This document shows, in pieces, positions 442-1,452 of a stretch of 32,000 bases of DNA. A model generated the notes under the pieces. That model did not search any database, was not told the DNA's origin, and saw nothing but the letters and a program-made list of their open reading frames with translations. Within the stretch, counting starts at the first letter, position 1; every line of letters starts with the position of its first letter. The position numbers and the translations under genes were made by a program. Origin of the DNA: Planctomycetales bacterium (GTDB lineage Bacteria > 4484-113 > JAFGCY01); the NCBI GenBank assembly GCA_022646745.1, contig CP060262.1, positions 2,190,001 through 2,222,000 of the forward strand. Direction: 5' to 3'.

Positions 442-610
442 CGGCGCGCGCATCGCGCGACTGGCAGTGGATGCGGCGAGGATAAGATAACAGTCATGCT
501 TGGCAATCCGCCAAATGTGCTTCGTGTCTTCGCGCCTTCGTGACAACAAAATAGTTTGCATAAACCACGAAGTCACGAAGGCACGAAGAATGGACGGGGT
601 TGGGATTGAC

Positions 611-690
611 GGAACCGGAAGTAGGGAGGCGGTAATACCGACTCACGGGATGGGGTTTTACCCCATCCCTACCTCAAAGAACTTGGCAAC
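611..690 (+). repeat. twin-hairpin module, copy A (first hairpin degraded)
   Basis: GGAACCGGAAGTAGGGAGGCGGTAATACCG...GGGATGGGGT-ttt-ACCCCATCCC...CTTGGCAAC matches 7708-7787. There is a perfect 10-bp stem at 647-669. Confidence 0.8.
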
Positions 691-726
691 ATGCCCTCAC
701 TCGCGGACTGCGGTGCGCACGCAGTA

Positions 727-974
727 CCCGCTCGGGTGCTGGCGTCGCTTGGCGACGCCGGTACACTTATCGTTTGATTCATCGACAAGCTCAAGTACCG
801 GCGCAGCCATGACGCGAGCAATGAGCAATGAAGACTGAGCAATGAGCCTGACAAACATCTTCTTCCACTGTGGAACTCTGTGGATCTCTGTGTTTGACAA
901 TCCTCTTACATCCATGTTGCCAAAATAGTACCGGCGCGCGCTTCGTGCGCCTGGGAGTGGATGCTGCGAGGTTC
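727..974 (+). repeat. ~245-bp repeat unit R1, copy A
   Basis: Aligns in direct orientation with 7436-7681, roughly 85% identical by eye. Contains, in order:
- hairpin at 741-759
- GAGCAAT heptamer tract at 816-850
- CTCTGTGG repeats
- TTGACAA
- ATGTTGcCAAAAT
- a GC hairpin followed by GGAGTGGATGCTGCGAGG. Confidence 0.85.
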
Positions 975-1028
975 GCAAGACAGATGGGCTTGGCAATCTG
1001 ATTGATTCACTCCACGCCTCTGTTCTTT

Positions 1029-1290
1029 CTCTGCGCCTCTGCGCCTATAGAACCATGCTGGCGAGCACGGTGCTTCCCGCGCGACTGCGCGTCTTGATAG
1101 TTTGTACCTGAGCGCTTCATATTCGTTCGAGTGGCAGCGTAACCTGCGTAGCGGTTCTTTTGGCGCAGAGGCGCAGAGGGATCCTGAGACGCAGAGGAAA
1201 TCAGCTATCTGGCAACATTCACTCACTCGCAAATCGCATTGCGCACGAATTACCCGCTCGCGTGCTGGCGTCGCATGGCGACGCCGCTAC
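1029..1290 (+). repeat. repeat unit R2, copy A
   Basis: CTCTGCGCCTCTGCGCC...ACCATGCTGGCGAGCACG...GGCGCAGAGGCGCAGAGGGATCCTGAGACGCAGAGG...CTGGCAACATT...CTCGCGTGCTGGCG matches 7233-7467. The centre of the unit is diverged. It ends in a truncated R1 start (hairpin 1267-1285). Confidence 0.75.
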
Positions 1291-1363
1291 TGCTTATCAT
1301 TTCTTCCTGCTTCTCATTCTCATTCTGTTTCTCTTACTGCCCACTGACAACTGACCACTAACA

Positions 1364-1426
1364 ACTTCTTCCACTATTCGCACTATTCGCACTATCCGGA
1401 CCATTGCCAGACTGTCGTCTGGCCTC
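1364..1426 (-). repeat. gene-3' module (CACTATTCG repeats + CCAGAC hairpin), copy downstream of DUF2207 gene
   Basis: ACTTCTTCCACTATTCGCACTATTCGCACTATCCGGACCATTGCCAGACTGTCGTCTGGCCTC is the reverse complement of 6825-6889, with a few substitutions and indels. Confidence 0.8.
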
Positions 1427-1452
1427 CACGCCTGGCTTGCGCCAGGCCTCCA

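Follow-up and report, generated by a model that had tools for sequence, protein, structure and literature searches.

REPs, GC-rich imperfect palindromes of 20-40 nt that lie mostly close to the 3' ends of convergent or co-directional genes, typically occur in more than 100 copies per genome, RAYTs are HUH/Y1 transposase genes flanked by their REPs, and BIMEs are clusters in which REPs alternate in orientation, with a few kinds of conserved linker between them. In cyanobacteria, STRR sequences consist of intergenic tandem heptamers with nested small dispersed palindromic repeats. GTAG-tagged REPs have been published for the Planctomycetes-Verrucomicrobia group, GTGG variants included (PMC3733652), with families in Rhodopirellula baltica and Opitutus terrae (PMC3733652, PMC2817692), and published work also admits degenerate tags such as GYAG, GTRG and GTGG. 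Here we analyzed a window of 32,000 nucleotides (contig CP060262.1; coordinates are those of the window unless another contig is named) from an uncultured UBP7 / 'Planctomycetales' MAG recovered from Hong Kong activated sludge. Array A, 1011 bp in length (442-1452), lies in this window between two converging stop codons, those of gene 1 (439-441) and of a DUF2207 gene on the minus strand (1453-1455), and consists of lineage-specific repeat hairpins, mostly GTAG-tagged REP-type palindromes, piled up between the converging genes. With a probability of roughly 70%, array A is a non-coding cluster in which extragenic repeats specific to the lineage form a mosaic and which, together with array B (6775-7951) and further arrays, resembles BIME clusters, its REPs probably having been seeded by a transposase encoded elsewhere, its growth having proceeded by recombination and slippage, and its transcripts possibly acting as 3' untranslated regions.

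The gap at 442-1452 is genuine non-coding DNA, as stated by the original prediction, which had described about 1 kb without a credible ORF. All ORFs within it are short and rich in Cys, Arg and His, their frames are not kept between repeat copies, and no conserved reading frame was found in 442-1452. When strains were compared, mismatches in the arrays fell on the three codon positions at ratios of 41:27:29 and 38:30:30, as opposed to, for example, 1:2:42 in the kinase gene. Likewise, the excess of mismatches at third codon positions that was present in the flanking genes in the comparison with the close relative was absent in the arrays, in which the majority of indels were not multiples of three. 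The longest array ORF, used as a query against protein databases, returned solely the same locus. A small hydrophobic peptide from ATGAGCCTGACAAAC in module S was also considered and dropped, given the 10-nt indels and non-synonymous changes between the copies and, in the short S form, a stop after 7 codons.

Our blastn analysis demonstrated that about 86% of 442-1452 recurs within the window, chiefly in array B, in line with the near-total recurrence that had been claimed, inside array A or in array B. The previously noticed likeness of 436-508 to 924-998 was recovered as a match between 437-508 and 927-998 (78%, E 6e-11). Further matches were found between 684-995 and 7392-7702 (81%, E 4e-83), 799-1270 and 7004-7452 (73%, E 2e-75), 593-690 and 7690-7787 (86%) and 684-775 and 1210-1302 (83%), while 1364-1451 is present inverted at 6799-6888; beyond these repeats, blastn found no module matches elsewhere in the 32-kb window. 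The only parts without a second copy inside the window are 509-592, which recurs in a related strain (L019 17279-17347, in the array B' of that strain; L006), and 1303-1363, which recurs just outside the window (20028-20109 and 20423-20458 of L001, an independent MAG contig). Moreover, a third array with direct and inverted copies of module V lies directly left of the window, and a fourth (array D; L015 6534-7452) occupies a separate locus of the same organism in the same sludge samples. Array D is composed of modules P, S-core and T, and the gene beside it carries the locus tag H7A35_03685, the 573-aa gene next to array B being H7A35_08645. DNA scans with the module cores retrieved from representative genomes an orthologous 864-bp contig and one chance coding match, no more, and yielded no matches in JGI metagenomes or viral contigs; array A itself had no blastn match in plasmids and phages.

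At least eight types of module make up array A, a mosaic similar to BIMEs. They comprise two families of GTAG/GTAC-tagged, GC-rich palindromes (REP-like), single or as inverted dimers, long hairpins with arms of tandem octamers (CTYYGYG / CRCRRAG), tandem blocks of heptamer to decamer units, and units of GGAGG with a small hairpin. Array A begins with module P1 (438-508, plus strand), a unit of REP family 1 whose GTAG (438-441) overlaps the TAG stop codon of gene 1 and which continues with a GC palindrome (443-461), the conserved tail TGGCAGTGGATGCGGCGAGG and a TTGGCAA end (500-506); paralogues of P1 lie at 928, 7123 and 7635, with further copies in L013 (a relative), L015 and L019. Module H (509-592) is a hairpin with arms of three tandem octamers, CTTCGTGN at 520-544 and CACGAAGN at 563-588, and is 100% identical between the window and L019. 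Module Q (593-690), which ends in TTGGCAAC and has its 86% identical copy at 7690-7787, is a head-to-head dimer of REP family 2, the first REP consisting of GTAG 621-624 and a hairpin at 626-644 and the second of a hairpin at 647-669 and CTAC 669-672 (GTAG on the minus strand). Module R1 (684-766, plus strand) starts with TGGCAACAT and contains an inner hairpin (705-727) and a second hairpin of 13-15 pairs with a GGTAC end (734-766); it is a REP family 1 unit on the minus strand and terminator-like on the plus strand. A conserved linker of 28 nt (767-794) separates the inward GTAC tags of R1 and S, R1-linker-S forming a tail-to-tail REP dimer, and the identical linker is found at 7473-7502. 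Module S (795-927, plus strand) has a REP family 1 head (GTAC 795-798), (GAGCAAT)n at 816-847, TGACAA, (CTCTGTGGNN)n decamers at 868-895 and a TTGACAA/TTGCCAA hairpin. The next module, P2 (928-1009, plus strand), is again a REP family 1 unit with GTAC 928-931, a palindrome at 931-953, the tail GGGAGTGGATGCTGCGAGG and TTGGCAA at 990-996. Module T (1010-1204) is a hairpin of about 190 nt with a conserved interior and arms of CTCTGCGC and GCGCAGAG octamers (1029-1054 / 1153-1178, 92% complementary); it recurs at 7214-7391 as well as in L013, L015 and L019, the last with two copies. Module R2 (1205-1290, plus strand) carries a hairpin at 1262-1290 with a CTAC end, i.e. a GTAG tag on the minus strand, and module V (1291-1363) is built from tandem blocks of (CTCATT)n and (ACTGACN)n. 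Finally, module U (1364-1452, minus strand), in the sense of the DUF2207 gene, begins right after the stop codon with two 'GGAGGC + 5-6-bp hairpin' units (1451-1431 and 1427-1407), followed by (NNNGAATAG)3. Modules T, H and V and the S core are not REPs.

Array B draws on the same modules. It starts from the stop codon of the pyruvate kinase gene with a module U in the sense of that gene (6775-6888, plus strand), which is followed on the plus strand by a stretch (6889-6999) composed of a purine oligomer block, hairpins (6898-6940) and a further hairpin bearing a GTAG tag (6964-6987), and by S with a GTGG tag (7000-7122), P3 (7123-7164) and a short S core (7165-7213). Module T (7214-7391), whose arms at 7233-7258 and 7336-7360 are 92% complementary, precedes a plus-strand stretch at 7392-7689 that consists of R3 (7392-7472), the 28-nt linker, S (7503-7634) and P4 (7635-7689). 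The array is completed by module Q, the REP family 2 dimer (7690-7787), which is 100% identical in the related strain, and by a minus-strand segment (7787-7951) with a module U (7951-7818) oriented like the 573-aa gene and, after it, a hairpin (7817-7787) that bears a GTAG tag and a T-run and resembles an intrinsic terminator. The original prediction had the modules juxtaposed without spacers; this is true of some, while others are joined via the 28-nt linker. Over the 2.2 kb of the two arrays, 9 copies of TTGGCAA lie at module junctions, compared with about 0.2 expected.

The REP-like nature of the tagged units is apparent from their structure and their location. GTAG tags were found at 438, 621, 6964, 7123 and 7635 on the plus strand and at 672, 1290 and 7817 on the minus strand, GTAC tags at 795 and 928 (plus) and at 764 and 7472 (minus), and the variants GTGG and GTGC at 7000 and 7503, respectively. 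The window thereby holds at least 14 tagged units, with more at the separate locus of the same organism, and of the 16 hairpins of array A, about half bear a GTAG/GTAC tag on one of the two strands. Tagged palindromes have GC stems of 6-13 bp and loops of 3-7 nt, REP-type palindromes being present at 443-461, 626-644, 647-669, 734-766, 931-953, 1262-1290, 7442-7474 and 7792-7815, and the tag, degenerate forms included, stands unpaired at one end. Dimers occur in two arrangements, Q with the tags outside and R-linker-S with the tags inside, the latter with the linker common to both arrays. The order of REPs in array A (+, + -, -, +, +, -) is irregular, with non-REP modules between them. All of these sites are extragenic, in arrays A, B and D as well as in the orthologous arrays of L013 and L019, and convergent 3' ends flank all four well-defined arrays (4/4).

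These features can be set beside those of E. coli REP/BIME, Pseudomonas REP/REPIN, Stenotrophomonas SMAG and the GTAG families, systems that are likened here by traits and not by sequence. In common with GTAG REPs, the units are short, GC-rich, imperfect palindromes with an unpaired GTAG (GTAC/GTGG) at one end, they form inverted dimers 1-30 nt apart as well as mosaics with conserved linkers, they adjoin the 3' ends of convergent genes, and they display G-T stem pairs and variation between strains. In contrast to GTAG-REP systems, about 60 kb of non-redundant sequence of this organism and a further 55 kb or so from three relatives contained neither a RAYT nor any other transposase; the original prediction had likewise noted that neither a transposase nor a cas gene accompanies the array. 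Unlike BIMEs, the arrays are about 1 kb long, REPs make up only part of them, their orientation does not alternate regularly, and octamer-armed hairpins, heptamer blocks and GGAGG-tagged hairpins are included. The BIME analogy that had been drawn from the hairpin-rich modules alone could nevertheless be taken further than proposed, to the GTAG/GTAC tags, the inverted dimers and the convergent 3' ends, and, judged by these shared traits, the array can be regarded as a more elaborate relative of E. coli BIME clusters, not as a new kind of system. Among the three options offered at the outset, structured sRNAs, a protein-binding array or a non-autonomous repeat family, the last one fits best.

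Other described repeat systems show partial resemblance. NIMEs, in which dRS3 repeats surround variable RS segments (PMC1797815), are likewise intergenic mosaics of 50-150-bp modules with a short repeated junction motif, reshuffled between strains by recombination, and in Neisseria a 100-150-bp element with inverted-repeat ends, the Correia element, coexists with such mosaics. However, the junction motif is TTGGCAA or a REP head here rather than dRS3, and nothing ties the arrays to phage integration or natural transformation. Similar to cyanobacterial STRR, small palindromic elements lie among intergenic tandem heptamer blocks, but phylum and motifs are different and the blocks, of 2-9 units, are often inverted pairs that form hairpin arms. 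A CRISPR array was rejected on account of the lack of a regular period, the recurrence of the 'spacers' themselves and the absence of cas domains, and integron attC sites and group II intron remnants on account of the absence of any defining feature.

Comparison with relatives points to how the mosaics may have grown. In L014, whose neighboring gene is 50% identical, the B site is a short terminator of 140 bp with one hairpin, while L013 (neighboring gene 77% identical) has a 744-bp array at this site with P, S-core, T and R in unchanged order. In the close relative L019, array A lacks S and U, and array B has an extra block of 162 nt. Between close strains, indels of whole modules are bounded by repeated REP heads, tandem blocks show unit slippage with unit number varying freely, and the sequence variants of R1 and R2 are swapped, which we read as gene conversion. 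From these alignments, array change between strains looks mostly like recombination, slippage and gene conversion, not like clean transposition; since recombination alone is enough for all strain differences seen, these do not demonstrate active transposition. The absence of gene 1 from L013 had raised the idea that gene 1 and its flanking arrays are an inserted mobile cassette, an idea that we discarded, as gene 1 of a more distant relative is adjacent to the same HTH gene as here, at a spacing of 105 bp. No family match was obtained for gene 1 or for its paralogue. In the proposed scenario, REP-like units would first have been put in place by a REP-associated (HUH/Y1-type) transposase whose gene lies in another part of the genome, and once several copies stood side by side, homologous recombination and slippage could have built the 1-kb mosaics. 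The arrays would be transcribed as 3' untranslated regions, in which the hairpins may halt transcription from both sides and shield mRNA 3' ends; terminator-like sites were found in R1, in R3 and at 7815-7792.

The octamer-armed hairpins raise a different possibility. Contrary to the initial statement that the array lacks terminal inverted repeats, inverted arms are present in H (520-544 / 563-588) and in both copies of T (1029-1054 / 1153-1178 and 7234-7258 / 7336-7360, both 92%). Similar to MITEs, H and T are non-coding, multi-copy elements of 85-190 bp with inverted arms of 25-45 nt. In contrast to MITEs, no direct repeat flanks T in three contexts, in agreement with the earlier claim that target-site duplications are missing, no cognate transposase was found in any locus examined, the interior of T is conserved, and the arms are tandem octamers differing in sequence between copies. 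Arms of this kind also surround a GxxExxY (PDDEXK_3) gene of the same organism (L015 3909-4286), which is flanked by 30-nt, 97% complementary arms of three tandem CACAGAGN octamers and has beside it a second arm pair around a 162-nt remnant of the gene's 5' end. Octamer arms of the CRCRRAG class flank 5/9 of the GxxExxY genes that we tested, in at least five distant lineages that include Gemmatirosa, Bernardetia, Sphingomonas and Bacteroides finegoldii, and the armed genes are wedged among housekeeping genes such as fabD and fabG. This octamer-armed cassette matches no described family and is defined in this analysis from the nine tested genes. H, T and the S tail could be gene-less kin of it, and the array could partly be its graveyard or nursery rather than that of REPs, an alternative that we consider possible though doubtful. 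In its favor, octamer blocks in the window, L015 and L019 are confined to the arrays. However, H and T have the right octamer class with the opposite arm order and no gene: the cassette runs from a purine arm through the gene to a pyrimidine arm, while H and T run from a pyrimidine arm through the loop to a purine arm on either strand. Moreover, the conserved interior of T has no similarity to the GxxExxY gene, T and the S tail are flanked on either side by no more than a loose TGRCAA motif instead of a clear target-site duplication, 4/9 GxxExxY genes are without octamer arms, and there is no sign that the nuclease moves anything. It is rather unlikely that H, T and the S tail belong to an undescribed cross-phylum element, the full form of which would be an octamer-armed GxxExxY PD-(D/E)XK nuclease gene inserting between housekeeping genes, with the arrays as sites where gene-less copies gather with REPs. 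If true, a large protein family of unknown function would gain a first functional context, namely that of a nuclease for mobility or homing, and the octamer arms could explain why GxxExxY genes are often multi-copy and wedged between unrelated genes.

Whether the modules are functional RNAs, either discrete sRNAs or selected 3'-UTR structures, with the array kept for its function and not as selfish DNA, bears on the same hairpins. The predicted richness in hairpins was evident from folding energies, the MFE z-scores against dinucleotide shuffles being -9.4 (plus strand) and -9.5 (minus strand) for array A and -8.7 and -8.9 for array B, compared with -1.2 to +1.3 for two coding controls. Compatible with a role in RNA, the 'GGAGG + small hairpin' units of U lie behind stop codons, their orientation being without exception that of the gene upstream, and begin 0-3 nt after the stop, except at the window's 573-aa gene, where one untagged hairpin precedes them; their ten different stems are all fully complementary within the common frame GAGGY-stem-loop-stem-GCAAT. 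Two G-T pairs kept in the R hairpins are workable on the plus strand only. Furthermore, H and Q are nearly invariant, with 0 to about 6 mismatches per about 100 nt versus roughly 10-14 expected from four-fold degenerate sites, while silent sites differ by 7-21% between strains, and this conservation is not predicted by a purely selfish-DNA reading. The 38-nt S core is 97% identical in L013, the coding DNA of that relative being 70-84% identical. However, whole modules, U and S included, come and go while the flanking genes are unchanged, the arrays as a whole are 89-92% identical between strains, much as four-fold degenerate sites are (79-93%), and the 3 + 3 compensatory changes in the R3 stem are covariation in one copy only, which resembles gene conversion. 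In addition, fold strength is equal on both strands, and no Rfam 15 family reached its gathering score in the window, both arrays and four GxxExxY loci, matches at E<5 being chance hits to eukaryotic miRNAs and snoRNAs below one third of the threshold. The Rfam result and the equal folding of the strands lend nothing to the sRNA option of the original prediction, and the wider functional-RNA reading is unlikely. A CsrA sponge was also rejected, the approximately 14 GGA motifs in array A not exceeding, by eye, what composition gives.

Symmetric folding of both strands fits a DNA-level role as well. Protein-binding arrays have been reported for E. coli BIMEs and, by analogy, the tandem 7-10-mers and palindromes might serve as serial binding sites of a DNA-binding protein, for example a nucleoid protein, gyrase or an IHF-like factor. 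We regard this as very unlikely: the regular 7-10-nt period of GAGCAAT, CTCTGTGGNN, CTCTGCGC and CACTATTCG and the repeated junctional TTGGCAA would suit such a function, but the number of units in the tandem blocks is free to vary between strains. Inspection by eye also led to rejection, on spacing, of TTGGCAA and TTGACA as sigma-54/sigma-70 promoter elements; a scan with promoter consensus sequences found 5 weak sites versus 1.7 expected.

It is hardly credible that the array is an assembly artefact, as had been envisaged at the outset, or a chimera of repeat copies, or that it hides a real gene: although short-read assemblies do break on repeats at the array edges, both arrays are 100% identical to the window in L001, 482-1052 is matched without a difference by a 571-bp contig of another sample, the window is collinear with the related strain, whose assembly draws on several samples, and the codon-position pattern, the ORFs varying from copy to copy and the protein search described above argue against a gene.

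The BIME-like mosaic reading has practical consequences for this organism, since its arrays break short-read assemblies, in which contigs end at the edge of the array, 68-79 bp beyond the stop codon, and can seed spurious ORF calls. Steps in the build-up of a mosaic can be followed across three related genomes, from a 140-bp terminator through a 744-bp array to arrays of 1.2-1.4 kb. The finding extends REP/BIME-type repeat biology to an uncultured candidate-phylum lineage (UBP7).

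Array A (442-1452) is a mosaic of REP-type (GTAG-tagged extragenic palindromes) and other extragenic repeats and resembles the BIMEs, the mosaic clusters of REPs. The gap between gene 1 and the DUF2207 operon described in the original prediction is real and is bounded by two facing stop codons, that of gene 1 (+) at 439-441 and that of the second DUF2207 gene (-) at 1453-1455, which flank the array convergently; across it the G+C content drops from about 66% to 55-57%. Array B (6775-7951) is flanked by the convergent stops of the pyruvate kinase gene and of a 573-aa gene, whose product is identical to H7A35_08645 ('Planctomycetales bacterium'). 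A sister MAG is labeled UBP7 HKST-UBA01, and judging by the WANG18 sample labels, the ENA samples probably come from a series taken from saline activated sludge in Hong Kong. The DUF2207 operon itself (1453-5219) comprises two tandem paralogous membrane-protein genes with a 4-nt overlap, and each protein has a long C-terminal tail rich in Gly and Ser (GGGWGGG...SSSSGGGYSGGGGGGGGGKGW).

An assembly artefact was rejected, since both arrays are unchanged in the independent MAG contig L001 (GCA_020440665.1), a 571-bp contig from another sample is identical to window 482-1052, and the L019-L021 contigs are collinear with the window. Coding DNA was likewise rejected because mismatches with the closely related strain L019 are spread flatly over the codon positions (41:27:29 in array A and 38:30:30 in array B) and most indels in the arrays are not multiples of three; flanking genes display the usual third-position excess (e.g., 1:2:42). 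Aligned array identity between the window and L019 (89-92%) is near that of four-fold degenerate sites (79-93%), and modules besides H and Q diverge at about the silent-site rate. Per ~100 nt, H and Q differ at 0 to about 6 positions, where ~10-14 mismatches are expected, and over the stretches 509-690 and 7690-7817, which hold H, Q and the terminator next to them, identity is 97-100%; this conservation could reflect either selection or a recent recombination tract.

When the array A region was compared with the whole window by blastn, matches were confined to array A itself and array B. The predicted internal repeat pair was recovered as 437-508 and 927-998 (78%), and 684-775 matched 1210-1302 (83%). 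Between the arrays, 593-690 matched 7690-7787 (86%), 684-995 matched 7392-7702 (81%, E 4e-83), 799-1270 matched 7004-7452 (73%, E 2e-75), and 1364-1451 was matched inverted at 6799-6888 and directly at 7903-7952. Therefore about 86% of array A recurs inside the window, and the two leftover pieces have counterparts in the related strain and a short way beyond the window edge, in agreement with the claim that nearly every part of the array is reused. The modules were also correctly described as hairpin-rich, as both arrays give folds far more stable than those of their dinucleotide shuffles (z = -9.4/-9.5 for array A, -8.7/-8.9 for array B), unlike coding controls (z = -1.2 to +1.3). Elsewhere in the window, a 438-nt periodicity occurs inside the gene (20185-27819, -) of a 2544-aa hybrid histidine kinase, in which many PAS domains are followed by HisKA, HATPase and receiver domains.

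The modules of array A are arranged in the order P1, H, Q, R1, linker, S, P2, T, R2, V, U. REP family 1 forms the heads of P, S and R, in which GTAG, GTAC or GTGG is followed by CGGCGCGG..CCGCG-type palindromes. Beyond this head P carries a conserved (T/C)GGGAGTGGATGCNGCGA, and S, without the 20 nt that follow the head in P, goes directly into a (GAGCAAT)n block. The family 1 unit of R sits on the opposite strand, and R and S therefore constitute a tail-to-tail dimer, whose 28-nt linker is identical in arrays A and B. REP family 2 is represented by Q, a head-to-head pair in which one REP reads GTAG-GGAGGCGGT-AAT-ACCGCCTCC and its partner, encoded on the opposite strand, GTAG-GGATGGGGT-AAC-ACCCCATCC. 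GTAG REPs have been published for R. baltica and O. terrae (PMC3733652), and our units resemble them in the GTAG tag, in 6-13-bp stems with short loops and G-T pairs, in the formation of dimers and in their location at convergent 3' ends; these features support the suggested likeness to BIME mosaics.

Among the remaining modules, H and T are long hairpins in which each arm consists of two or three tandem octamers (CTTCGTGN/CACGAAGN in H, CTCTGCGC/GCGCAGAG in T), and a solo (CTCTGTGGNN)n block is found in the S tail. In the three sequences searched (the window, L019 and L015, a contig of the same organism with array D), octamer-class blocks were confined to arrays. The S core (AGCAATGAGCAATGAAGAATGAGCAATGAGCCTGACAA; window 816-856, 7021-7061, 7165-7204 and 7525-7564, and 12129-12166 in the relative L013) is conserved much better than the remainder of the arrays, its copies being 95-97% identical, also in L013, where coding DNA matches the window's at only 70-84%. 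TTGGCAA stands at many module junctions and occurs 22 times in the window versus 2.6 expected from shuffles, with nine copies within the 2.2 kb of arrays. The other 13 belong to coding DNA away from the arrays; codon usage or a word over-represented genome-wide may be the source of the excess.

Octamer arms were also found around GxxExxY genes. In the same organism, a GxxExxY gene (TIGR04256/PF13366) is located between 30-nt arms that are 97% complementary and contain three CACAGAGN octamers, and a decayed copy between similar arms adjoins it (L015 3869-4334 and 4473-4708). A tblastn search in plasmids yielded eight further GxxExxY genes, half of which (in Gemmatirosa, Bernardetia, Sphingomonas and B. 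finegoldii) carry the same octamer-class arms (L023 306-981, L024 454-904, L025 444-880, L026 325-796), while the other half do not. The arms of these genes (PDDEXK_3, TIGR04256), 25-35-nt inverted repeats of tandem CRCRRAG octamers, occur in five distant lineages (UBP7, Gemmatimonadota, two Bacteroidota and Alphaproteobacteria), and the genes are often wedged among housekeeping genes (fabD/fabG, radA). In the papers covered by full-text searches on GxxExxY and PDDEXK_3, no description of this arrangement was found. The cassettes carry their arms in the opposite order to H and T, which therefore are not simply cassettes minus the gene.

Related genomes point to the history of the arrays. The B site is a 140-bp stretch with a single hairpin in L014 (neighbor gene 50% identical), and measures 744 bp in L013 (77% identical), 1177 bp in the window and 1415 bp in L019; in L013 four U units in a 24-nt tandem are followed by P, S core, T, R and the terminator, which is the window's order. 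Gene 1, array A and array C are all absent from L013. A more distant relative does have gene 1, separated from the neighboring HTH gene by a 105-bp spacer; the gene is therefore ancestral, and the arrays represent expansions. Array C (L001 19910-20571, some 240-900 nt to the left of position 1 of the window) separates gene 1 from a divergent HTH_20 gene. It contains GGTCAGT heptamers (about nine in tandem), three hairpins with a CAT loop, blocks of GAAGGCA and of CTGCTTCT, and inverted ends of ~35 nt; module V, known from array A, is present in both orientations. Array D (L015 6534-7452), at a locus apart from the other arrays, lies between convergent genes, downstream of the gene-1 paralogue H7A35_03685. 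Gene 1 (window 22-441 with L001 19233-19910; 225 aa) and this paralogue (L015 6124-6534; 136 aa) share an N-terminal domain that is conserved but matches no family, and each is preceded by oligomer-repeat blocks and followed by a repeat array. Compared with L019, array A of the window has gained or lost S, a 133-nt stretch with GTACCGGCGC at 795 and 928 as its borders, and the 79-nt U. In array B the differences are a 162-nt block that comprises a P tail, H and a REP head, and a 20-nt P/S switch, and the lengths of tandem blocks vary in steps of whole units (9, 10, 18 and 19 nt). In addition, R1 and R2 variants are exchanged and the R3 stem has 3 + 3 compensatory changes, which indicates gene conversion. 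Turnover of the arrays is fast and proceeds via recombination, slippage and gene conversion.

Tandem U units (window 1407-1452 (-), 6775-6850 (+) and 7877-7951 (-); L013 12317-12466; L001 20385-20430) are always oriented in sense with respect to the upstream gene. They begin 0-3 nt past the stop codon at two of the three 3' ends in the window, and the same is true of both genes in L013 and of both in L019; at the third window end, that of the 573-aa gene, U is preceded by one untagged hairpin. Each unit consists of GAGGY (within GGAGG(C/T)), a 5-7-bp stem, a 3-5-nt loop (often GCAA) and GCAAT, and carries a Shine-Dalgarno-like motif; (NNNGAATAG)3 comes after the run of units. The ten different stems seen are all fully complementary. 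R1, R3 and 7815-7792 received terminator-like scores. A 66-nt double palindrome at 28579-28644, between a convergent DUF302 gene (+) and a 106-aa ORF (-), resembles a bidirectional terminator and bears no relation to the modules of the arrays.

The arrays are multi-copy, hairpin-forming and located at 3' ends. Their REP units may have been seeded by a RAYT-type enzyme (a REP-associated transposase); no transposase was seen in the window or in the other loci examined from this organism and three relatives. The arrays would be transcribed as 3' UTRs and could provide termination and 3'-end protection. Repeats of this BIME-like kind are known, and what is new is the lineage in which the mosaic occurs, together with its unusual extra modules.
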